IMG/VR virus record: IMGVR_UViG_3300034101_000207
Span: 1 to 31,196 of that record
Direction: 5' to 3' (one strand)
DNA length: 31,196 nt
Source of the DNA: a virus
Taxonomy: Duplodnaviria; Caudoviricetes
Shown piece by piece: positions 15,169 through 30,420 of this stretch. Both the position numbers and the translations under genes were made by a program. The number at the start of each line of letters is the position of its first letter. The first letter of the stretch is position 1. Under the pieces are notes generated by a model, which had not been told where the DNA came from, did no database searches, and saw nothing but the letters and a program-made list of their open reading frames with translations.

Positions 15169-18100
15169 ATGCCTCGCTACGTAGTGACGATGCCGGATGG
15201 TAGAAAATTTGCCATCAACGGCCCTGCTGGTGCATCTCAAGCAGAAGTCATTGCTGCCGTACAACGTCGTCTAGGTGCAGACAAGAAAGAAGAAACCACT
15301 CTCGGCGGTGAACTAAAAGAAGCGGTTAAAGGCGTCATCCCCGGTGCGGCTGGACTTCTTGAAACGGCAGCTACCGGTGCCGCCGCGTTGCTTCCTGAAG
15401 AACAGGAAATGGCTGTACGAGCCAAGGCCGCAGAGATGGCTGGTGCCGCCCGTGAAACGTTTGCTGCTGCACCCGGTTATGAAGATTCTGTCGGTCGCAA
15501 GTTTGGTGAAGCCCTTGGTTCGACCGTACCGTTCTTTGCTCTAGGTCCTCTTGGTGTAGCCGGTCGTGTTGCCGCCACTGGACTTGGTGTTGGAGCAGGT
15601 GCAGGTGAGGCTCGGCAGCGTGCTGAGACTGAAGGCGGCGAAGAAGATAAAGGTCTTGCCACTGCGGCAGGTGCCGTCGTCGGTGCCAGCGAAGCCATAC
15701 CGGTATTCAACTTCGTCAAACGTTTGCCTCGTGGCGCACAGTTAGATATTGCTGATCGTGTTCGCCGTGCATTTCAGGCCGGTGGTGAAGAAGGCGCACA
15801 GGAAGCTGCTGCACAGATCGCTCAGAATTTAATTGCCCGAGGTTTGTATAAGCCTGATCAGGCGTTGATTGAAAGCGTTGGTGAAGAAGGTGCATACGGC
15901 GCGGGTGTCGGTGCATTCATCCAAGTCCTGACCGACATGGCGCTGGGTCGTCGTGCCAAAACTGCCCCGCCTCCTGAGCCACCCACCGCACAAGAAAAGT
16001 TGGCTGAGCCTGAGACACCGCCCACTGCACCGGCTGGAACGCAGGCAGCGGCAGCGGAAGATGTAGCAAAACAGGTCGATACGCAATCCACTGTTAGACA
16101 AGCTCTTGACGAAGAGATTAGCGCAGAGGAAGAAGCCCGTCTTGAACGCGAGGCTATCCAAGCCTATGAGCGCGAGCAGGAAGAACTCGCTGCTACCAGA
16201 CGCCGTCAGTACGACGAGAGAACTCTGCGCGAAGCAGCGGAGGCTGAAGCACTTGCTCCGGTAGACGAAGATATTCCGTACATGCGGCCCATGAGTGAGG
16301 AGGCTCGTGCTGCCCTAGATATGAATCTGGGTGAGCGCCTCATGGGGGATGAGATAGAAACTCCGTCTATGAGTGAGGAGGCTCGTGCTGCCCTAGATAT
16401 GAATCTGGGTGAGCGCCTCATGGGAGACGAAGTAGAAACCGTAGAACCAGAATACACGATGCGGGACGCTGCTCTTGAAGTGTTCCGCGAGACTGGTAGA
16501 ACTAACGTAGATACGTTGCGTGATCGGCTGGCTATTCCGTTGCAGGAAGCCAAGCAACTGCGTCAGTCATTTATTGATGAAGGATTACTTGTAAGGCGTG
16601 GCAACACCTACATATTGCAGGAACCGACCAAAGAGGCTCCGCCTGCCAAGGCAGAGGAGGTGGAAGATGCAGCAGTACGCGCCAGAGATATTGAAACAGT
16701 TGACACTGGAGCAGTTGGAAGAGGCGATGTATTGCCTCCATCACGACCAGTATCCGAGGGACCTGTTGTTACAGAGCCTGCAACTACCGCAGTGGAACGA
16801 GTTGGCGAATTTGCTCCAGATGTTGTTGAAGGAACGGCAGCAGCAGACGTTGCACTAACTGCGGGTAAACCCGCGCTTCCTGAGAGGAAAGTAAAGAAGG
16901 CGGCGGAGGCAATTACTGCTCAACGCATACAGCCGGGTTTGCCTCTTGAAGATACTCGTGAAGCAGAACCAGAAAAGGCTGCCCCTGCCAAACTTCTCAG
17001 TAGGCGAGCTATCTTCGATGAAGCAAAAAAATTATACGCGGCTGGTCAAGTAAGCCCGCGTACATACCGTGCTGTTCTGGAAGAAATAACCAACGCGCCG
17101 TTTGGTGAGTTAAAACAGCGTGACCTAATAAAGCTACGCGATAAATTACGTGCGTCTCAGCAGCGTATCCAAGCAAGTCAGGCGGCTCCTGTAGAGCAGG
17201 AGAAAGTAGAAGCTCCGGTTTCTACCGATGATGAACTTGCTGCGTTTTATAAGCGCAGGCAGGAAGAAGATACACGGCAACGTGTACGCCGCGAACGTCG
17301 TGATATTGGCATGCGTTTACAGCGTGGCCCCGGTATCGGTATGGATGCAGGTCGCGTCCAACAGATCGCTGACAAGGCTGCTGCCAACTGGAAGAACAAG
17401 CCTCGCATCATCGCCGTTCAGTCAATCGATGAAGTGCCTGAGTCAATCCGTGACAAGGTTCCGGATGATGCACGTGGCTTCTATATTGCTGGCGACGTAT
17501 GGATTATTGGTGATAACGCCACGACTGAAGCGGGCGTCCGTGCCACTCTATTCCATGAGTCGCTTGGTCACTACGGCTTGCGTAGCATGTTTGGGCGACG
17601 TCTCCGCGAGGTAATGCTCGATATATACCGTACTAATCCCGCCATGCGTAAGGCAGCGGATAAGTGGTTGGGCGATGCTCAGAACGCCACTACGTACGAC
17701 TACATGGACCGTGACGGCCAGACTGCTATGGCTGTTGAAGAAGTTCTTGCTGAAGCGTCGTCGCAGGGTGAGATCAAGAACGCCGGTATTCGTGCTGCCT
17801 TCAATCGTGTTGCTGCCCTTATCCGCAGGTTCCTGCGTGCTATGATAGGTGGGTTTAGAGGCGGCGAACTTGCTTATAGTAACAACGATGTCCGTCAGGT
17901 TCTGATTGAAGCACACAGCACGGTTATTACTCGTGAGCGTGAAGCTCGACTTGGTGACGGCACGATTGCCTTCCAACGGAAAAAGGCTGAAGCCCGACTC
18001 AGTAGCGTATTTAATGTCAATCTGACTGCACCAAAGTACAACGAAAAGATTGGCGATGGCGTACGTGGTGCGCTTGGGAATGTTTATGACTCGCTGCGCG

Positions 18101-20688
18101 AAGGCGCAATAGGCTTCCTAGGCATAGATCAGATTGCAGAGGTATGGGCTGAAGAACTTCCTGCTGTTGAGAAACTAGACAAGATTCTTAGCGCACGTGG
18201 CTCTACCGAAATGACCCGGCGCGAGTACGTTAGCAAGAACGTGACTGACTGGTTTGAATTGTCCAACAAGCATTCGCCTGAAACGCTTGATAAATTTTTC
18301 CGCGTAGCCAACATGACTACGATCTATCAGGTTGATCCGTTGGATAGTTCGGTACAGGCAGTATTGAAGAAGCCAGTTACTGCTATGACGCCGTTTGACA
18401 AGGTCTCGTATGACATTGTCAAAGAGTACAACAGCATGCCTGTCGATCTTCGCAAAGCCTATAAGGACATGCGTGAAGATTACGATAAGTCGGCCAAAGA
18501 GTTCGAGAAGCTGCTTGAGCAGCGGCTCGGTAAAGACGTACTCGATAGAATCAAAAACAAGTACGACAAGAAGAAACTTCAGGTCTATTTGCCTTTGTGG
18601 CGTGACGGTAAGTACTGGCTAACTTACACCGACAAGAACAATGAGACCATCACTTCTGCCTACGCCACTGACGTAGAGAGGCAACGAGCGAAAGAAGCCG
18701 TGTTGGCTGCTGGTGGCAGAGATATTCAAGACTTTAAGCGTCTGCGGGATGCGCGTGAAGGTGCGCCGCCGACCGGATTCTTGGGCGAGATCGTCAAGGA
18801 ACTTGACAGTAAAGGTGTGCCGCCTGATGCCATCGACGCCGTGTACGAGGCGTATCTAAACTACTTACCTGCTGAGTCTATTCGTCAAATGCGTCGTCCC
18901 CGTGAAGCGTCATTTGATTTGACCACGGGCGTGGATCGCTACGGTGTATTCGGCTTTGAGCCTGACATCTTCCAGTCCTACGCGAACGTTGCGCCGCGCA
19001 TCGCTAACCAGTTGACCAATCTGGAGTACGCCATCCCCATCGAAGAAACGATGAGGGAGATCAAGAGACAGGTTGGTGGCGACAGACCGCGCAATCCGAC
19101 GTTGGCTGCGGTGTATAACAATCTGGAGAAGCAGGTCAACTTCATCCGTAACCCCGAGAAGAATTGGCTCGTGGACGGTGCCAGCTACTTCAGCTATCTG
19201 TGGTTCATTGCGGGTAATATTTCTTCTGCACTGATCAACTTGACTCAGATTCCCATGGTGGTCGCGCCGCTACTTGGCGGTAAATACTCTATTGCGAAGG
19301 CTACTGCCGCGCTGGATAGAGCTTCGGCTACTTACTTCAACGGTGGATGGGATACTAACAACGGTGGCAGAGGCGCGTTCCCGTCTGACTTTACGTTCGG
19401 CGCTGCCCAGAATCTGCCGCCCCGTTACAAGAGACTGTACAACCGTGCGGTAGCCCAGTCGATCATTCGCCGTTCAACCGGCTACGAAATCACTGAAGCA
19501 CAGCGGTCTGGTGTTAAAGACTTCGTGGGAATACGAGCACGAGTCGAGCATGGTCTTGGCTGGATCTTCCAGAACTCGGAACGTTTCAACCGTGAAATTA
19601 CGTTGCTCGCCGCGTTTGATCTCGCCTACGAAGAAACCAAAGATGTAGACAAGGCGATTGATGAAGCCTTGAAGTTGGTGAAGGCAGCGCACGGTTCTGC
19701 TCTTGCCGAGACTGGTCCGCGTCTGTTCCAGCAGGGTTTTGGTAAGGTGATGTTCACCTTCAAACGCTTTGCTCAGGCCCAGATCTACTTGCTGTCTAAG
19801 TTGTTTAAGCAATCCTTTGGCGATGCTGATCAACGCACCCGCGAGATTGCACGTAGTCAGTTGATTGGTATCTTCGGATCGTCGTTCTTGATTGCAGGTA
19901 TTCAAGGCATGCCGATGTACGGCGCGGTCGAGATGCTGGCTAACCTGCTGCTTGGTGACGATGACGAGCCATACGACTTTGAAGCCTACATCAACAAGAA
20001 GTTTGGCGACATGGGGCAGAAGGGTCTGCTCAACAAGATGATTCAGGTAGACGTTGCTTCGCGTACCGGCTTCAACAGTTTGATCTGGAAGGACGATCCG
20101 CAACGCATGGCTGAAGTTGGTCCGTTCTTGTACACCTTGGAGCAGGCAATGGGTCCTGCCTACGGCGCGTTCTTGAGCGGTCAGCGTGGGTATGATCTAT
20201 TTAAAGAAGGTGAGTACCGACGTTCCATCGAGGCAATCACACCGTCGTTTATCCGTAACGGGTTCAAAGCAATTCGTATGGCCGAGGAAGGCGTGCGTAA
20301 CAAAGACGGCACACCTGTTATTGAAGACATAAGCCGTTACAACTTGATGATGCAGTTGGTCGGCTTTACTCCTGCCAAGGTAGCCGAAGCTCGTGAGAGC
20401 GCGGGTGTAGATAGAAAGATAAGTGACAAGCTTTATGCACGTAGAGATAAACTGCTTAATCAGTATTTCTCTGCTTGGCAAGAGAATGATCAAAAAGAAA
20501 TGCAAGAACTACTCGGTAAAATGTATGAGTTCAGCATAAAAAATCAGAAGCCCGGCTTGTTTATTGATGCCGAGACGATACAGAAATCCATTTCAGGCAA
20601 GTTGGAACGGCAGGCACAGTCAGTAAACGGTATGTACTTACCGATGCCGGTACGCACCAGAGTAGAAGAAATACGAGAGGGTGGTTAA
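15169..20688 (+). CDS. Giant internal virion/ejection polyvalent protein: Gly/Ala hydrophobic region, wHTH, zincin-like metallopeptidase, PLxRFG-like C-terminal region
   Basis: 1839 aa. TLFHESLGHYGLR (His at 17554 and 17569) plus a downstream EEVLA; YLPLWRDGKY at 18586-18615 resembles YxPLxRFGxY; last gene of the late module. Confidence 0.75.
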   Translation: MPRYVVTMPDGRKFAINGPAGASQAEVIAAVQRRLGADKKEETTLGGELKEAVKGVIPGAAGLLETAATGAAALLPEEQEMAVRAKAAEMAGAARETFAAAPGYEDSVGRKFGEALGSTVPFFALGPLGVAGRVAATGLGVGAGAGEARQRAETEGGEEDKGLATAAGAVVGASEAIPVFNFVKRLPRGAQLDIADRVRRAFQAGGEEGAQEAAAQIAQNLIARGLYKPDQALIESVGEEGAYGAGVGAFIQVLTDMALGRRAKTAPPPEPPTAQEKLAEPETPPTAPAGTQAAAAEDVAKQVDTQSTVRQALDEEISAEEEARLEREAIQAYEREQEELAATRRRQYDERTLREAAEAEALAPVDEDIPYMRPMSEEARAALDMNLGERLMGDEIETPSMSEEARAALDMNLGERLMGDEVETVEPEYTMRDAALEVFRETGRTNVDTLRDRLAIPLQEAKQLRQSFIDEGLLVRRGNTYILQEPTKEAPPAKAEEVEDAAVRARDIETVDTGAVGRGDVLPPSRPVSEGPVVTEPATTAVERVGEFAPDVVEGTAAADVALTAGKPALPERKVKKAAEAITAQRIQPGLPLEDTREAEPEKAAPAKLLSRRAIFDEAKKLYAAGQVSPRTYRAVLEEITNAPFGELKQRDLIKLRDKLRASQQRIQASQAAPVEQEKVEAPVSTDDELAAFYKRRQEEDTRQRVRRERRDIGMRLQRGPGIGMDAGRVQQIADKAAANWKNKPRIIAVQSIDEVPESIRDKVPDDARGFYIAGDVWIIGDNATTEAGVRATLFHESLGHYGLRSMFGRRLREVMLDIYRTNPAMRKAADKWLGDAQNATTYDYMDRDGQTAMAVEEVLAEASSQGEIKNAGIRAAFNRVAALIRRFLRAMIGGFRGGELAYSNNDVRQVLIEAHSTVITREREARLGDGTIAFQRKKAEARLSSVFNVNLTAPKYNEKIGDGVRGALGNVYDSLREGAIGFLGIDQIAEVWAEELPAVEKLDKILSARGSTEMTRREYVSKNVTDWFELSNKHSPETLDKFFRVANMTTIYQVDPLDSSVQAVLKKPVTAMTPFDKVSYDIVKEYNSMPVDLRKAYKDMREDYDKSAKEFEKLLEQRLGKDVLDRIKNKYDKKKLQVYLPLWRDGKYWLTYTDKNNETITSAYATDVERQRAKEAVLAAGGRDIQDFKRLRDAREGAPPTGFLGEIVKELDSKGVPPDAIDAVYEAYLNYLPAESIRQMRRPREASFDLTTGVDRYGVFGFEPDIFQSYANVAPRIANQLTNLEYAIPIEETMREIKRQVGGDRPRNPTLAAVYNNLEKQVNFIRNPEKNWLVDGASYFSYLWFIAGNISSALINLTQIPMVVAPLLGGKYSIAKATAALDRASATYFNGGWDTNNGGRGAFPSDFTFGAAQNLPPRYKRLYNRAVAQSIIRRSTGYEITEAQRSGVKDFVGIRARVEHGLGWIFQNSERFNREITLLAAFDLAYEETKDVDKAIDEALKLVKAAHGSALAETGPRLFQQGFGKVMFTFKRFAQAQIYLLSKLFKQSFGDADQRTREIARSQLIGIFGSSFLIAGIQGMPMYGAVEMLANLLLGDDDEPYDFEAYINKKFGDMGQKGLLNKMIQVDVASRTGFNSLIWKDDPQRMAEVGPFLYTLEQAMGPAYGAFLSGQRGYDLFKEGEYRRSIEAITPSFIRNGFKAIRMAEEGVRNKDGTPVIEDISRYNLMMQLVGFTPAKVAEARESAGVDRKISDKLYARRDKLLNQYFSAWQENDQKEMQELLGKMYEFSIKNQKPGLFIDAETIQKSISGKLERQAQSVNGMYLPMPVRTRVEEIREGG
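16291..16440 (+). repeat. 78-bp tandem duplication (MSEEARAALDMNLGERLMGDE x2)
   Basis: 56 bp identical at 16291-16346 and 16369-16424, followed by a few mostly synonymous differences. Confidence 0.95.
16667..16858 (+). CDS. Nested out-of-frame small protein (63 aa) inside the giant virion gene
   Basis: AGGAGGT at 16655-16661, 5 nt before ATG 16667. Product MQQYAPEILKQLTLEQLEEAMYCLHHDQYPRDLLLQSLQLPQWNELANLLQMLLKERQQQTLH is amphipathic-helical; the host frame here is a low-complexity linker. Confidence 0.6.
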   Translation: MQQYAPEILKQLTLEQLEEAMYCLHHDQYPRDLLLQSLQLPQWNELANLLQMLLKERQQQTLH

Positions 20689-24944: not shown

Positions 24945-25346
24945 TCACTTACTAACTTTACGTACTGAAACGCCATACTCGCGCATCACGTTGACACCGG
25001 GCGGCAACCCGTCGCCTTCATGATCTTTTATAAACTCTTTGAAGTTGCCTTGATGGATACGACGCTCAAGCAACTGCACGGCTTCGTTATCAAGAACAAA
25101 CTTGTAGAAGTTATCCCAATCTTGGCAGAAGAAACGTTCGTTCAACTTACGCATCACCGTGCCGTGGCTCGTCTTGATGCTGTCTGCATTTACGCTGTTG
25201 CAGATGTTGAGCAATGCCGTTTCGATCTGCATCGACTCAGCCTTCAGGGCCTTGTCAGCAGCTTCATACTCTTGAAGGAGTCGGTCGCGCTGATTGCGTA
25301 TAGCGATGAAAGCCTTCACTAACTCTTCTGTATTTACTTCACTCAT
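24945..25346 (-). CDS. Conserved phage replication-module protein (N-terminal coiled coil)
   Basis: 133 aa with SIKT.HGT...DWD.FY.F....A..LLERRI.Q.N...F......PPGVN; lies between the helicase and the SSB-like gene. Confidence 0.65.
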   Translation of the reverse strand: MSEVNTEELVKAFIAIRNQRDRLLQEYEAADKALKAESMQIETALLNICNSVNADSIKTSHGTVMRKLNERFFCQDWDNFYKFVLDNEAVQLLERRIHQGNFKEFIKDHEGDGLPPGVNVMREYGVSVRKVSK

Positions 25347-26935
25347 ACTAGATCCTCACTGAGTACATTACTGTACAGGTCAACTATTTTTTGATGACTA
25401 TCTACCTTGCCTTGCAGCATGGAGTACATCTTCTTCTCAACGTCCGAGCCTTGCAGGTGAACAACAGTCATCTTGTTCTTCTGCCCGACTCGTTCAATAC
25501 GCCCGATACATTGCAAGTAAGTCTCGACGCTCATCACTGGCGACCAGAACACAATCGTGTCTGCCGCCGTCAAAGTAATTCCATGTGCTGCCGATTGCGG
25601 TTGAATCACAAGCACTCGCGGATCAGTCAAAGTCTGGAAACGCTTGATGATCTCTGAACGCTCTTGTGCTGCTACCGAACCTTGAATGACCTCACACGTA
25701 ACGCCTTCGTCTGCTAGGAACTTCGTGACTACATCAATAGTATGGATGTACGGAACAAATACTACAACCTTGTTTGACGTTTCTTCAAGCACTTCTTTTA
25801 ACGCATTGAGTCGCGGTGAAACATCGAACTCGATGACCTTTTGCTTGTCGGTGTAGACCGCACCGCCACTGATCTGAAGAAGTTTATTTAGCGATGCCGC
25901 TGCGTTGATGGCGGAGACTTGCTCACCAGATGCTTCGATAAGAAGTTGTTGCTTCAACTCTTTGTAGTACTTGGCTACTTGCGCCGTGAGCGGCACGATG
26001 CGTGTCTGATAAGTAAGTTCTGGCAGATCCAAACATTCCTTTTTGGAGTATCTGATCGCAGGTTGTAATGCTTTGAATACGTCTTCCTTGTGGGTCGGCC
26101 TCGGCATCCACTTGAACCGTGTCACTTGGTACATGACCTTGTCACGCCAAGCAGTAGTGAACTTCGGTACGCGCTGCGGTGCAACCAATCGCGCCAAACC
26201 AAACGCATCAAGCGGTGACTGCGATGCCGGTGTGCCTGTCATCATCCAGAGCCACGTGTCAGGCGTAAGTAATTTAGCCAACGTCTTCCATCGTTTTGTT
26301 GACGCCGTCTTGTATGCGTTGGCTTCGTCGATGATGATCAAATCAAACTTGGCAGCAAGCAGTTCATCGAAGACTACGTGCGTACCGTCATAGTTGATGA
26401 TTGTGAAATCGTAGTTGCTCTCAATAATCTTCTTACGCTTCTCGCTGCTACCGTGTGCCACAGCGCAACTGCGGTGCATGGCGGTCTTGAATACGTCTGC
26501 CTGCCACGCCGAATACATAATCGACAAAGGACATATCACAAGAACTTTCTTGATGATGCCCAACCCCATGAGATAGTCGGCAGCCCAGATGGCAGCGGAG
26601 GTCTTGCCCGTACCGGCTTCGTTGAAACAGAACGCACGTTGCCGCACCGACAGGAACGACGCCGTATCTTTCTGATGTTCGAACGGGCGGTGGATACCGG
26701 GCCAGTTGTAGTCGCGCAGTATCGGTGACGGCAGCTTCGGTAAGTTTGGATTGGGTTGAGCGGTGTCGAGGATAGCCGATGCTATAGACACTTCTTTGTG
26801 ATCCCAAAACAATAAAACGTTTTTAGCGAAAGCGTGTGCTTCTCTAATCTCGCACTTGTCTATGTGAGAGTAGATCTCGTCTGCAAGGTTGTAAGGAATT
26901 GTGAACTGTAATGCTTGGTTTTCTACTATATTCAT
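25343..26935 (-). CDS. SNF2-like superfamily 2 helicase
   Basis: PFEHQ Q-motif; NEAGTGKT; VICPLS; IIDEA; MTGTP; HGITLT; Q..GRIER.GQ. Confidence 0.92.
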   Translation of the reverse strand: MNIVENQALQFTIPYNLADEIYSHIDKCEIREAHAFAKNVLLFWDHKEVSIASAILDTAQPNPNLPKLPSPILRDYNWPGIHRPFEHQKDTASFLSVRQRAFCFNEAGTGKTSAAIWAADYLMGLGIIKKVLVICPLSIMYSAWQADVFKTAMHRSCAVAHGSSEKRKKIIESNYDFTIINYDGTHVVFDELLAAKFDLIIIDEANAYKTASTKRWKTLAKLLTPDTWLWMMTGTPASQSPLDAFGLARLVAPQRVPKFTTAWRDKVMYQVTRFKWMPRPTHKEDVFKALQPAIRYSKKECLDLPELTYQTRIVPLTAQVAKYYKELKQQLLIEASGEQVSAINAAASLNKLLQISGGAVYTDKQKVIEFDVSPRLNALKEVLEETSNKVVVFVPYIHTIDVVTKFLADEGVTCEVIQGSVAAQERSEIIKRFQTLTDPRVLVIQPQSAAHGITLTAADTIVFWSPVMSVETYLQCIGRIERVGQKNKMTVVHLQGSDVEKKMYSMLQGKVDSHQKIVDLYSNVLSEDLV

Positions 26936-27109
26936 AACTGTACCTGTTAATTAAAGCCCGTCTCGTGGGCTAGACGGTCGATGCCCAAGTTGGAGGCTGT
27001 GCCATGGATATAGCACGCGTGGGACTTGCCATCGACTGACGCGGTTCGCGGTGTCACTCCGCAGGGAAGGGTGGCTCCCCGTTCAACGCACTCACGCCTT
27101 GCGCTGAAC
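26936..27109 (-). ncRNA. Candidate structured RNA (cis-regulatory leader or ncRNA) with multiple stems and a probable pseudoknot
   Basis: Longest intergenic region in the window and mostly base-pairable: 10-bp, 6-bp, 5-bp and nested 7+5+7-bp stems. Non-canonical pairs inside stems are G-U on the minus strand. Family not recognised. Confidence 0.6.
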
Positions 27110-27363
27110 TATTTCATCGCACCAGAAGACTTACGAGGGAAGGATCGGTTCTTGCTAGGAGACTGCAACTTAGTACCGTCCCCGTTGCTACCGCCCTTCG
27201 ACAGTGCCTTTACGTGGGCAACGTCTTTACCTTTTCGGTTAATACCTTTCTTGTCGTAGGATCGTCGGGCGCGTTGGCGCTCCATACGATCTTCGTGTTC
27301 ACCACGTTCGACTTGCTTCTTGTACTCGTGCTTGTATGGACGAGGCTTGTTTACATAAGGCAT
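27109..27363 (-). CDS. Small basic HNH-like (His-Me finger) protein, possibly degenerate
   Basis: 84 aa: R.YK.EY...R..R.RARR...G.DVAH.KALSKGGSN......SPSKNRS, resembling small podophage HNH proteins but with DVAH instead of DVDH. Confidence 0.6.
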   Translation of the reverse strand: MPYVNKPRPYKHEYKKQVERGEHEDRMERQRARRSYDKKGINRKGKDVAHVKALSKGGSNGDGTKLQSPSKNRSFPRKSSGAMK

Positions 27364-27364
27364 G

Positions 27365-28018
27365 TCATTTCACCTTGTAGAATTTGCATGTATCAACCGG
27401 ACACCAACCGCACAGGCCGCTCGGCTTTTCAGGCCAAAAGCTGTTCTCGTATGCGTTCTCTAGTCGGGTCAGGTCGCCTTTGAACTCCAGCCACAACTTG
27501 TCTATGTCAGATCTCGCATATTCTTCTGGCACGAACGAGTTGCGCGTGATGAACAGCAGTCCCGCCTTGATGTTCACTACATCAGGGAAGTGTGCATAGG
27601 TCATCAGTGCCATCAACTTTAACTGCTTCGGGTCAGGATACTTGTTGCTGCCGGTCTTGTAGTCAATGATGAAAGCGTCTTCACCGTCAACGATCAGCAG
27701 GTCAACGATACCTCGTACCCAACGATCCTCTGCATCGAACTCACACTTGGTCTTATCTAATTTCAACGCCATCTGATACTCGGGGTATCGCTTGCCCGGT
27801 ATCTTCAATAATTCATCTAGTACAGGTTTGTAGTGGGAGTAGTGTTTCGCAAGCGGCTTGCCCTCACGGACGTAATCTTCTACCGCCTTGTGTACCTCCG
27901 TCCCGTACAGCATTTGCTCCGTGACTTTCTTAGTCACAGACTTCGCTATCTTCACCTCATAGTACTGCTTCGGACAGTTAATGAAGTCTTTGAGACTACT
28001 GTATGACCACTGAATCAC
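27365..28018 (-). CDS. PD-(D/E)xK exonuclease, Cas4/RecB-like with 4-Cys cluster
   Basis: WSYSSL..F..CP; GTEVH; RGIVDL; IIDYKTG; QL..MA; CGWCPVDTC. Confidence 0.88.
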   Translation of the reverse strand: MIQWSYSSLKDFINCPKQYYEVKIAKSVTKKVTEQMLYGTEVHKAVEDYVREGKPLAKHYSHYKPVLDELLKIPGKRYPEYQMALKLDKTKCEFDAEDRWVRGIVDLLIVDGEDAFIIDYKTGSNKYPDPKQLKLMALMTYAHFPDVVNIKAGLLFITRNSFVPEEYARSDIDKLWLEFKGDLTRLENAYENSFWPEKPSGLCGWCPVDTCKFYKVK

Positions 28019-29875
28019 TTAACAATCCCCATAAGACTGCCCGTACTTCGCTTCACAAGCGACCGGCAGACCTTTAGCCCAACTCGGAGGAGTAGACATT
28101 ACTTGTGTTATAAACGCAAGTGCTTCATCTACCTCACTTTCTGGAGCAATGATTACGGCAGCATCATGCACAGTCAGCACAGGCCGGTAGCGTTCACGTA
28201 GTTTAAGCATCTGCTCACCGACGATAATTCTGGCGAGTGCCTGCACCACGTTCTCAACTACAGCCCCACCCCAAATGGATACAGGGCCTTTGCGCGAGTC
28301 GTAGGTCATGCGTTCATCTTCAATACGTAGATTCGGGTATCGAATGTACAACCCGTTAGGCAGTCGTAGACCTGTGCTGTTTACTCTGACTACGTCGTGT
28401 TGTCCCAACGAATACTCATTCATCTCGCTAGTCCAACGCGCGATGTGACCCAGAGCCGTATCTGAATCACGCCACAAGCCCACGATCTTGTCGTTGATGT
28501 TGCGATACAGATTCACGATCTGCTTGCACTCGTCCTCTAACAAGTCAGCCCCCGGCGGTTGAGTCTTCAGCGTGTGCCGTAACTTCGCCGCGCCTGTGCC
28601 ATAGCCAAGTCCAAGAATGCAGGTCTTGCCTACGAACCGTTCGACGGGGTTGGCCTTGCTGATCGGTCGCTTGTAAATCTTGCTGGCGAACCTGCTGTAT
28701 ACGTCGTCACCCTCTCGGAACTGCTCAACCAGAGCGTTCTCTCCTGCCAACCACGCCAGCACACGTGCCTCGATCTGTGAACTGTCACAGTTAATAACCA
28801 CGTGGCCTTCTGGTGCTACGACCGACTTCTTCAGAGCCTTCTTCTTGGCATCACGACTCGGCAGGTTCTGGAAGTTGACTGAGTCAGCCCCTGCCCACCG
28901 TCCGGTGTGCGCCCCGTAATACTTCAACGGGATTGGAAGTAACCCCTTGTTCCTCGCACCGATACCGATGAACCGCTCGATACGCGACTCCTCGATGGTG
29001 GACTTAGTGCCCAACCGGACAGCGCACAGTTGCTGCACGATAGGATCTTCATGCTCCTGTAGTGCGATAAACCCTTCATCGTTCTTGGCGAGAGCAAAAG
29101 TCTCCTTGCCGGTAGTCGCGCTCACCTTCATGGGCGGTGCAACCCCCATGTCCTTCAGCACAGTGGCGAACTGCGGGTTGCTTGCTAACTTGGCACGAAC
29201 TTCTTCCTCACTGCCTACATCCAACACGCCCTTCAGGCCGTTCAGTAACTCGGTCTTCTCAGCCTTGATCTCATCCAGACGTTCAATTAACAACGCATCA
29301 TCCACGCGCAGCACCGGCAGCGTGTACATACGCAACGTCATGTCAATCAAATCTAGTTCGGACTGCGGAAAGTTTTGGACAAGTTTTCCGAAGAGTCTGT
29401 AAGTAAGTTCGACATCGTTCCTGCAATAGCCGCCGTAACGATCAAGATCATCAGGACGAAAATCACATCTTCTTTTCCCCAACGCATCGACAACCTCCGT
29501 ACCTTTCTTACCTAATGAGTAACGCTCTGCCAGTTTGGCAAGTGAACCACCTGCGTCTACACCGTGTACGGCACGTGCCATACAGAGCGTATCGAAATAG
29601 TATGCAGGGGTAATGTTAAAGATGAAGGACAGGATGCCACCGTCGAACTGCGTGTTGTGACACAGCAGCGCAGACGTATCCCAATCCACTTGGTTCAGCC
29701 ACGCCTTGATCTCATCGTGCGTACCGCTAAACCATTGCGTCTCATCCTCGTCAATCTTCATCGCCACACCGATCACTTCAAAGCGCGGATGGCGTATGTA
29801 TTCCTCAGTAGTTAGCCGTGTGAGACTAAAGTCCTTGGCGTAGTAAGTTTCAAAATCAAGTGTTACGAAACTCAT
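28019..29875 (-). CDS. polA: DNA polymerase family A with 3'-5' exonuclease domain
   Basis: ExoI DFETYY, ExoII HNTQFD, ExoIII YCRND; HTGRW; motif A DSSQIEAR; motif B RFVGKTCILGLGYG; motif C TVHDA. Start placed at ATG 29875 (ATGA overlap with the upstream gene). Confidence 0.95.
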   Translation of the reverse strand: MSFVTLDFETYYAKDFSLTRLTTEEYIRHPRFEVIGVAMKIDEDETQWFSGTHDEIKAWLNQVDWDTSALLCHNTQFDGGILSFIFNITPAYYFDTLCMARAVHGVDAGGSLAKLAERYSLGKKGTEVVDALGKRRCDFRPDDLDRYGGYCRNDVELTYRLFGKLVQNFPQSELDLIDMTLRMYTLPVLRVDDALLIERLDEIKAEKTELLNGLKGVLDVGSEEEVRAKLASNPQFATVLKDMGVAPPMKVSATTGKETFALAKNDEGFIALQEHEDPIVQQLCAVRLGTKSTIEESRIERFIGIGARNKGLLPIPLKYYGAHTGRWAGADSVNFQNLPSRDAKKKALKKSVVAPEGHVVINCDSSQIEARVLAWLAGENALVEQFREGDDVYSRFASKIYKRPISKANPVERFVGKTCILGLGYGTGAAKLRHTLKTQPPGADLLEDECKQIVNLYRNINDKIVGLWRDSDTALGHIARWTSEMNEYSLGQHDVVRVNSTGLRLPNGLYIRYPNLRIEDERMTYDSRKGPVSIWGGAVVENVVQALARIIVGEQMLKLRERYRPVLTVHDAAVIIAPESEVDEALAFITQVMSTPPSWAKGLPVACEAKYGQSYGDC

Positions 29876-30420
29876 GGGTCTACGCTCCATGTTTCAGTTT
29901 GCCGCTCAAGCCTCGGCCACTCAGATGTCGTGATGAAAGACTTGTCCTGCACGAGCACGTGGTTGGTAGGCTGTGCTGTGAACCTGCCGTTGTCCAACTT
30001 AATAAAGTAGAACTCTTTGGATTGTTCTGGTTCCAAACTAAACCCGTCCAACATGGGTATGGCAGTGAACATATACTTACCAGTCAATTCTGTTTTAGAC
30101 CGCAAGCGAACGCGCACCGGCACGGCTTCAAGAAACGGGTACTCCAATATACTGAACTGATGTCCGTAACAGTCCCATGTTTGACTGTCGCTCGGCTTCC
30201 AATCCAATGATGTTGTGATGATTTTGTGTGTCAGTTGATGTAACGGAACGTTGCGGTACACCGCTCCACATTCAAGCATTACATGACACCCCCACGTTCT
30301 GCCGGGGTGACTGACAAGACCGAACCACGCCACACGTAACCAATCTTCGTTACCAAAAGCGTGTGGTTGCACGTAACAGTACACGTGTCGAGGCAGCGGC
30401 CCCGCGCCAGAATAAATCAT
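29872..30420 (-). CDS. Conserved hypothetical phage protein (Cys/His/Trp-rich, beta-rich)
   Basis: 182 aa, translationally coupled on both sides; WFGL.S.PGR.WGCHV.LECGA.YR.VP.H and WDCYG motifs; function unknown. Confidence 0.7.
   Translation of the reverse strand: MIYSGAGPLPRHVYCYVQPHAFGNEDWLRVAWFGLVSHPGRTWGCHVMLECGAVYRNVPLHQLTHKIITTSLDWKPSDSQTWDCYGHQFSILEYPFLEAVPVRVRLRSKTELTGKYMFTAIPMLDGFSLEPEQSKEFYFIKLDNGRFTAQPTNHVLVQDKSFITTSEWPRLERQTETWSVDP

Follow-up and report, generated by a model that had tools for sequence, protein, structure and literature searches.

The stretch of DNA analyzed here over its full length of 31,196 nucleotides (hereafter the window) comes from an uncultured tailed phage; in this 31-kb fragment, which is about 49% complete, 173 nt of the minus strand separate an HNH-like gene (27109-27363) from a gene encoding an SNF2-family helicase (25343-26935). 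An earlier note on this locus had proposed that the gap encodes an unannotated, structured RNA, raising the questions of whether such an RNA is real, where it occurs and on which genes it acts. The HNH-like gene, which encodes a basic protein of 84 aa and is the upstream neighbor of the RNA in most loci, follows the genes for DNA polymerase A (28019-29890) and a PD-(D/E)XK nuclease (27365-28018) of a replication module on the same strand; beyond SNF2, the minus strand continues with three smaller genes and then a DUF927 primase-helicase. The phage has no close cultured relative: relatives of its SNF2 protein are at most 41% identical, and none of five genomes with such relatives carries the RNA. 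Blastn gave no match in the phage collection or among plasmids, and no carrier of the RNA is listed among the sequencing runs. Elsewhere in the window, positions 15169-20688 encode a protein of 1839 aa with an LPD39 domain and similarity to DarB-like antirestriction proteins.

A pseudoknotted minus-strand RNA without an Rfam family

The conserved element is an RNA of some 160 nt that forms a pseudoknot. Covariance model R1 matches it at 26951..27114 of the minus strand with 64.6 bits, the sole strong match in the window, which is itself part of the training alignment. The RNA opens with the P1 hairpin (27081..27109; 27109-27100 paired with 27090-27081 around the loop AGGCGUGAG), which starts at the G of the HNH-like stop codon and is supported by both the MFE fold and covariation. 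The P1 loop holds the 5' strand of the pseudoknot as identified in the alignment, GGCGUG (27093..27098; consensus GRYRYR), and two variable hairpins of the MFE fold follow, P2 (27080-27064) and P3 (27063-27047; together 27047..27080). A conserved AAC, the 3' strand of the pseudoknot, CGCGUC (27043-27038), and a single A (together 27037..27046) then lead into the P4 arm (26977..27036), in which a 7-bp base (27036-27030 with 26983-26977) carries a variable upper part. This arm presents a loop, CAGCCUCCA (26991..26999), hereafter the seed, which complements the ribosome-binding sites (RBSs) of four genes of an early cassette and whose CUCCA bases are predicted to be unpaired in the window RNA (P 0.91 or more). 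It also contains, as elsewhere in the family, a conserved G (26984; 97% of homologues). The last elements are a linker, CGUCU, and a 3' hairpin supported by covariation, P5 (AGCCC/GGGCU, loop ACGAGAC; 26955..26976 with the linker, 26971-26955 for the hairpin proper).

Across the family, an H-type pseudoknot made of P1 and a 6-bp helix is followed by a variable hairpin region, then by AAC and a lone A, and finally by P4, a CGAC-like linker and a P5 hairpin whose loop is of one of three types. The variable region mostly forms one hairpin, P3 being confined to a subclade, and RNAalifold adds two further pairs to the pseudoknot helix, both invariant and flanking a bulged purine.

P1, P2, P3 and the long arm all appear in the minus-strand MFE fold exactly where the earlier note had placed them; these helices stand, but its list had missed the fifth hairpin, P5, and the putatively functional loop of P4. 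The expectation that the element folds better than shuffled sequence holds only modestly, the minus strand scoring z -1.70, with 9 of 200 shuffles as good, and the plus strand z +0.57. Furthermore, MFE alone does not give the strand, since the sense strand has the lower z in only 25 of 60 homologues.

Covariation was assessed on alignment A1 (88 sequences), with 500 shuffles as a control. Every cell of the pseudoknot GGCGUG/CGCGUC (100%) is paired, and 4 of its 6 pairs show two-sided changes, which confirms the pairing proposed from the window alone, and the paired fractions of P1, the P4 base and P5 are 79.9%, 88.6% and 80.2%, respectively. None of the 500 shuffles reaches the observed values, and slid registers give 35-38%. 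Two-sided changes occur at 5 of the 7 counted pairs of P1 and at all 7 pairs of the P4 base, and the strongest mutual-information pairs are those of the pseudoknot, P1, P4 base and P5 helices. The pseudoknot cells include 95 G-U or U-G pairs and no A-C pair, which identifies the minus strand as the sense strand, as had been argued from the G-U pairs in the window. When the 5' strand was left unconstrained by the search pattern, all six pairs formed in 53 of 102 distinct matches and one mismatch was seen in 3; the other 46 had two or more mismatches and are chance matches. Invariant bases partly reflect the search patterns used, and a G-to-A variant at the foot of the P1 loop was found in 26 more HNH-SNF2 loci, where a U-purine closing pair is kept.

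A search of the window against Rfam 15 returned no match at E 5 or less and, above that limit, one plus-strand fragment of ZMP-ZTP (12.5 bits, E 8.6; gathering score 39). The 20 homologue loci searched likewise gave no match, and in 5 bacterial loci Rfam matched nothing over the motif. Together with the covariation, these null results bear out the proposal of an unannotated, pseudoknotted minus-strand phage ncRNA without an Rfam family: the RNA is real, and it is a new family of phage RNAs. The alternative guess of a self-cleaving ribozyme, or of a processing signal, would be in keeping with the compact pseudoknot, its invariant junction bases and variable stems, and with promoterless copies that would need release from a longer transcript; yet no Rfam ribozyme matches, and the covariation with target genes described below would be left unexplained. 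We do not favor this guess, which appears extremely improbable. Stop-codon readthrough, recoding or fusion to SNF2 was also considered and rejected: 0-53 codons follow the HNH-like stop, and all three stop codons and all three phases to SNF2 occur among homologues, with nothing conserved.

We found no description of the RNA in the literature, and a comparison covering part of the RNA catalogues (Weinberg 2017, Fremin 2023) leaves a prior entry possible. DNAVirus_1549 (Fremin et al. 2023, PMC10690425) is an automatic prediction of 117 nt from 74 freshwater phage sequences, to which the accessible portion of that report assigns no function; 25 of the 74 lie within 25 bp upstream of SNF2 genes and, compared by description, DNAVirus_1549 could be a subclade of the motif. 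The Polynucleobacter-1 motif (RF01718) was rejected as a relative, its sequence in the part of the supplement of PMC2864571 that was available being different and Rfam giving no match. The available text of 2026 genome-language-model preprints makes no mention of SNF2 or HNH.

Distribution and genomic surroundings of the family

Model R1 matches 34 of 80 viral loci carrying the HNH-like gene, and pattern scans yielded 120 further viral loci, in 100 of which the RNA lies directly behind that gene. Metagenomes contributed 120 loci, 97 of them distinct, with the pseudoknot fully paired in 92 and an HNH-like gene upstream in 80. A relaxed descriptor gave 158 distinct instances, or 99 after dereplication at 80%. 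Left out before counting were 6 false descriptor matches and, in the analyses that use P4, 8 instances with a mis-parsed P4. The family is common in freshwater viromes, for which strict patterns (one each) lead to estimates of about 310 IMG/VR and about 410 metagenome stretches. The RNA is single-copy, with one strong match per positive genome, and accessory, being absent from five relatives of 94-100% completeness, at least two of which have the early-gene cassette described below. In the RNA-less relatives L035, L053, L058 and L077, the HNH-SNF2 gap measures 80-90 nt and holds only a sigma-70-like promoter.

Among GTDB bacterial genomes, 3 of 11 pattern matches are real. Model searches of bacterial genome sets, seed genomes included, found the RNA in 1 of 25, 2 of 121 and 1 of 4 genomes and, in further sets, in 1 of 33 (strong), 1 of 151 and 2 of 151 (both strong). 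One bacterial copy (L477:1501-1656; G131:C4:83701-83856) belongs to a defence island that also encodes a complete Zorya system of type I and a subunit of type I restriction; behind the RNA come a U run and a convergent gene. Another, in a bacterial context (L209:2988-3130), precedes a SIMPL gene near a PDC-M33A-like ORF, a SIMPL-gene context that was not found in viral contigs. L535:1501-1649 is a copy between a hypothetical gene and an epimerase-like gene, L543:1076-1178 is a minimal copy of 103 nt near a tRNA gene, and in an unrelated phage type (L124, L092 and L107; G045) the RNA stands before the terminase region.

Of 99 homologues, 20 have a strong sigma-70-like promoter at most 60 nt ahead of the RNA core, compared with 3 of 179 control windows; none was found in front of the RNA in the window. 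In L116, the RNA's own promoter sits behind a terminator-like hairpin. P5 itself was rejected as an intrinsic terminator, as only 14 of 81 copies have at least 5 U in 8 nt and no U tract is conserved.

The usual site of the RNA is between the HNH-like gene and SNF2; in other loci the next gene is gp33-like, VRR-NUC-like, PD-(D/E)XK, of no recognized kind or SIMPL, or no gene follows for hundreds of bases. Copies before such varied genes or before none, some of them among bacterial genes, argue against a dedicated SNF2 leader. A cis-acting leader of the SNF2-primase operon (a riboswitch, a protein operator or a put/EAR-like antiterminator), with its loop sequestering the downstream Shine-Dalgarno (SD) sequence, would account for the same-strand start codon that 87 of 91 representatives have 20-109 nt beyond P4, the transcription starts predicted near P1 and the many invariant core bases. 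As far as the available descriptions go, the EAR (epsC) antitermination RNA and the T4 gene 32 leader are likewise pseudoknotted RNAs between or before co-oriented genes; they act in cis downstream, whereas the variable loop of the phage RNA tracks distant upstream genes. The P4 loop, moreover, has no preference for its own downstream RBS (permutation p 0.83-0.97; p 0.91 for SNF2 in the orthogroup screen below), a pairing that is convincing by eye but has equal own and foreign scores. The downstream genes are mutually unrelated, and some copies have a convergent gene, a strong hairpin or a separate promoter-like site behind them. Neither an adapted anti-SD sequence nor a coherent class of downstream gene was found, as would be expected of a translational cis leader, and a boxA-like word scores at background (4.0), which also led us to reject BoxA/boxB antitermination. 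The riboswitch-like leader of SNF2 suggested in the earlier note is not favored, because own-RBS preference is lacking, downstream genes vary and some copies have no same-strand gene behind them; we consider a cis leader improbable as the main function, and possible as a second role alongside action in trans.

The P4 seed and the ribosome-binding sites of early genes

Without exception, the upper P4 arm contains a pyrimidine tract, which mostly ends 14-18 nt from the 3' end of P4 and is 83% unpaired in MFE folds. In a first scan of seven near-complete genomes, the best RBS complement belonged to the same orthologue, a 366-aa AAA ATPase, in two; both genomes from which this moxR lead came were kept in later tests. 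Genome-wide, 8-nt RBS complements are no more frequent in a phage's own genome than in foreign genomes. We compared own and foreign RNAs at the RBS of the MoxR-like gene in 27 of the 35 genomes with a moxR match (30 loci, minus 2 incomplete and 1 without a parsed P4), with start codons placed by protein alignment. The longest perfect complement to the P4 interior averages 6.85 nt for the own RNA against 4.95 nt for foreign RNAs, and the duplex energy -11.5 against -8.3 kcal/mol (permutation p 5e-5).

The signal is concentrated in a cassette of three adjacent genes, which a fourth often joins. In a screen of all 37 orthogroups found in at least 6 of 26 genomes (5000 permutations, floor p 2e-4), three adjacent cassette genes, encoding an unknown 303-aa protein, the MoxR-like AAA ATPase and a DUF2201 metallopeptidase-VWA protein, take ranks 1-3 with p 2e-4 each; permutation p values overstate independence because the phages are related. 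The screen is null for SNF2, whose RBS is not a co-varying target, and for the gp33-like, 285-aa, HTH and PD-(D/E)XK genes, and gives a weak signal for PolA (p 0.006) and for a portal-sized gene (p 0.006, 8 genomes). Over the 22 genomes with all three cassette genes, the summed match is 19.7 nt for the own RNA and 14.7 nt for foreign RNAs. With 10 dereplicated genomes the values are 21.1 nt (own) and 13.0 nt (foreign); by this measure each of the 10 cassettes is matched best by its own RNA, by duplex energy 5 of the 10. For the orthogroup and summed-match analyses, and for the match counts and the G799 results that follow, start codons were set automatically with a generic anti-SD score, by one rule for all genomes. 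Of 313 genes no farther than 4.5 kb from moxR, 70 have matches of at least 7 nt, compared with 52 of 840 elsewhere.

Individual seeds illustrate this relationship. The seed UGAAUUGCUCCA matches three genes over 12, 11 and 10 nt, and those of other genomes, GCUACCUCG, AACCACCUC, GCUUCUCCUU, CCUUUCAGG, GCUCCUAU and UUCCUUUU, each find their own target. The window phage's own cassette lies outside the window, on a 42-kb contig (G799) that is identical to the window over the 4.6 kb compared. There, a four-gene early cassette (L611:445-4885, upstream of the window) encodes a 303-aa protein of no family, an AAA ATPase (phrog_1297), a DUF2201_N plus DUF2201 protein and a 364-aa protein of no family, preceded by a sigma-70-like promoter site (L611 317-345). 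Among the 45 called genes, the word GGAGGC occurs at the RBSs of these four alone. The four RBSs match CAGCCUCCA over 7, 9, 6 and 7 nt, with predicted duplex energies of -16.5 to -21.4 kcal/mol.

Not every genome follows the pattern at moxR: seven of the 27 have weak matches there, of 3 nt in L108 and of 5 nt in L025, L225, L245, L276, L104 and L127. Some of these seven match better at a neighboring gene; in L111, no gene among 20 exceeds 5 nt. In the unrelated phage type of L124, L092 and L107 (G045), the best RBS match, of 8 nt, ranks 1 of 74 genes and belongs to a gene for a 216-aa protein, a probable replication initiator.

Other partners of the loop were examined and rejected. Kissing between the P4 and P5 loops shows no own preference (p 0.73-0.997), and no antisense target was found within 900 nt on either side of the motif. 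The host as a target was set aside, as 8 genomes with the RNA, compared with 5 without it, show no phage-wide avoidance of the seed's complement. A generic mimic of the 16S tail, which had served as a working idea, was replaced by the target-specific covariation. A related explanation dispenses with real pairing altogether: the loop and the early RBSs would drift in parallel toward the host 16S tail, or would bind the same protein. In its favor, the 16S tail word ACCUCCUUUC (tail sequence taken from the available text of PMC6288834) takes rank 2 among 1260 permutations when scored for similarity to the interior of P4. A host effect would nonetheless reach all genes, yet most of the 37 orthogroups are null; the matches extend past the SD core with genome-specific letters, and SD usage is equal in genomes with and without the RNA. 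We therefore regard parallel drift as very improbable.

The cassette lies 10-15 kb upstream of the RNA and in the same orientation, the RNA of G799 starting about 10 kb after the last cassette gene, and this arrangement is open to a reading in cis. On that view, a single long transcript from the cassette promoter would contain the RNA, at its tail or internally, and would fold back onto its own RBSs. Such a transcript is possible because the window RNA has no promoter before it and the first 11.5 kb contain no convincing sense-strand terminator, only one weak terminator-like site. In L110, a VWA-like ORF and an ORF of 358 aa immediately precede the RNA, and for the bacterial copy of G131 one of the three best matches, of 7 nt, falls on the first gene of a two-gene unit that the RNA ends. 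Against fold-back in cis speak the distance of 10-15 kb here, the use of a single loop for three or four targets, and the homologues with a promoter of their own, among them L116 with its promoter behind the terminator-like hairpin; we consider it unlikely.

Proposed mode of action, related systems and variant copies

Taken together, the exposed CU-rich seed is complementary to its target RBSs and changes with them, as in an LhrC-like mode, and the comparative evidence speaks strongly for an antisense control that the phage exerts on its own early MoxR/DUF2201 cassette. We propose, with a probability of roughly 70%, that a trans-acting antisense RNA pairs with the early cassette mRNAs and represses their translation. 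The structure, the single copy per genome, the seed-target complementarity and its covariation across phages were computed directly; expression of the RNA, its pairing with the mRNAs and the sign and timing of its effect are inferred. The RNA would be transcribed as part of the replication module or, where a sigma-70 promoter of its own is seen (about a fifth of homologues), from that promoter. Because its gene sits in this module, the RNA would build up once the early cassette has been expressed and dampen that expression. Unpaired CU-rich bases would nucleate on the SD core and then extend into the flanks, and the resulting duplex would cover the 30S landing site, turning cassette translation off. 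Repression is the likely sign, since the SD core, and often the spacer as well, falls within the predicted duplex. At the two ends of the RNA, the 5' pseudoknot and the 3' P5 hairpin would guard it against decay, a requirement should it be released from a longer transcript, and they may also bind a protein. Early gene expression would thereby be timed or placed under negative feedback.

Under this proposal, the RNA combines a conserved pseudoknot scaffold with a re-targetable seed; that its core is more elaborate than pairing by itself would require weighs against the proposal. A complex core might suit activation, with the RNA as an adaptor that opens early RBSs or delivers them to ribosomes; timP, whose 5' pseudoknot promotes translation according to the available part of PMC13000454, provides a precedent. 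The predicted duplex, however, spans the SD core to within a few bases of the start codon and should exclude the 30S subunit, and later expression is expected of the module that contains the RNA gene, which makes activation barely credible.

Lytic-type phages without an RNA polymerase of their own must switch early genes off somehow, and trans-acting RNAs that silence a phage's own mRNAs are barely described. The proposed antisense repression would mark the MoxR/DUF2201 cassette as one that these phages express early and then silence. The family offers a rare case in which seed and target are seen changing together across genomes, which makes the mechanism directly testable, and a stable scaffold with an exchangeable seed is a possible chassis for synthetic sRNAs.

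The antisense mode is known; this pseudoknotted phage family is new. The c4 antisense RNA of phages P1 and P7 and the CI RNA of P4 are structured RNAs that silence the phage's own genes via exposed loops. The present RNA is similarly a structured phage RNA from a replication/immunity region that would target its own genome through an exposed loop, but it has no match to RF01695 and no complement within those 900 nt on either side, its predicted target RBSs lie 10-15 kb away, and its scaffold is an H-type pseudoknot instead of a cloverleaf (c4 antisense RNA, RF01695, appears in the accessible part of the list of PMC2864571). The closest mode, a loop seed that acts against the SD sequence, is that of LhrC1-5 of Listeria monocytogenes, described in the available part of PMC5880928 as chromosomal, multi-copy, stress-induced hairpins; in contrast, the phage RNA is single-copy and pseudoknotted, its seed changes between phages along with self targets, and it has no Rfam similarity. 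HnrS, a prophage sRNA, also represses translation by pairing at an RBS, that of a host gene according to the accessible text of PMC13502914, whereas the predicted targets here are the phage's own early genes.

The HNH-like protein may be connected with the RNA, although its gene also occurs without it. The usual HNH motif is DxDH; the window protein has DVAH, and the family mostly DVAH or DVSH, with a conserved arginine-rich helix, RMERQRARR. It falls in atlas clusters with 12-20% PF01844, and no match was found in Pfam or among solved structures in the PDB. Judged from these residues, the protein is probably degenerate at the active site and may be a nucleic-acid-binding protein rather than a nuclease. 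This opens a further reading, which we consider doubtful, in which the RNA is a re-programmable guide: the invariant scaffold would load an effector, and the exchangeable loop of 6-12 nt would steer it to chosen RBSs. The best candidate effector would be this basic, degenerate protein encoded directly upstream in most loci, and phages and bacterial islands would have re-aimed the RNA at different genes, such as the probable replication-initiator gene of G045. A guide of this kind would constitute a minimal RNA-guided mRNA-silencing system of phages.

Some copies vary downstream of P5. In L081, L085, L122, L164, L481 and their relatives, though not in the window, an extra long hairpin with an ACAC-containing loop lies between P5 and the SNF2 start, close to the RBS, and could be a separate operator. 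In L084, L142, L146 and L304, non-coding inserts with long inverted repeats stand just downstream of P5.
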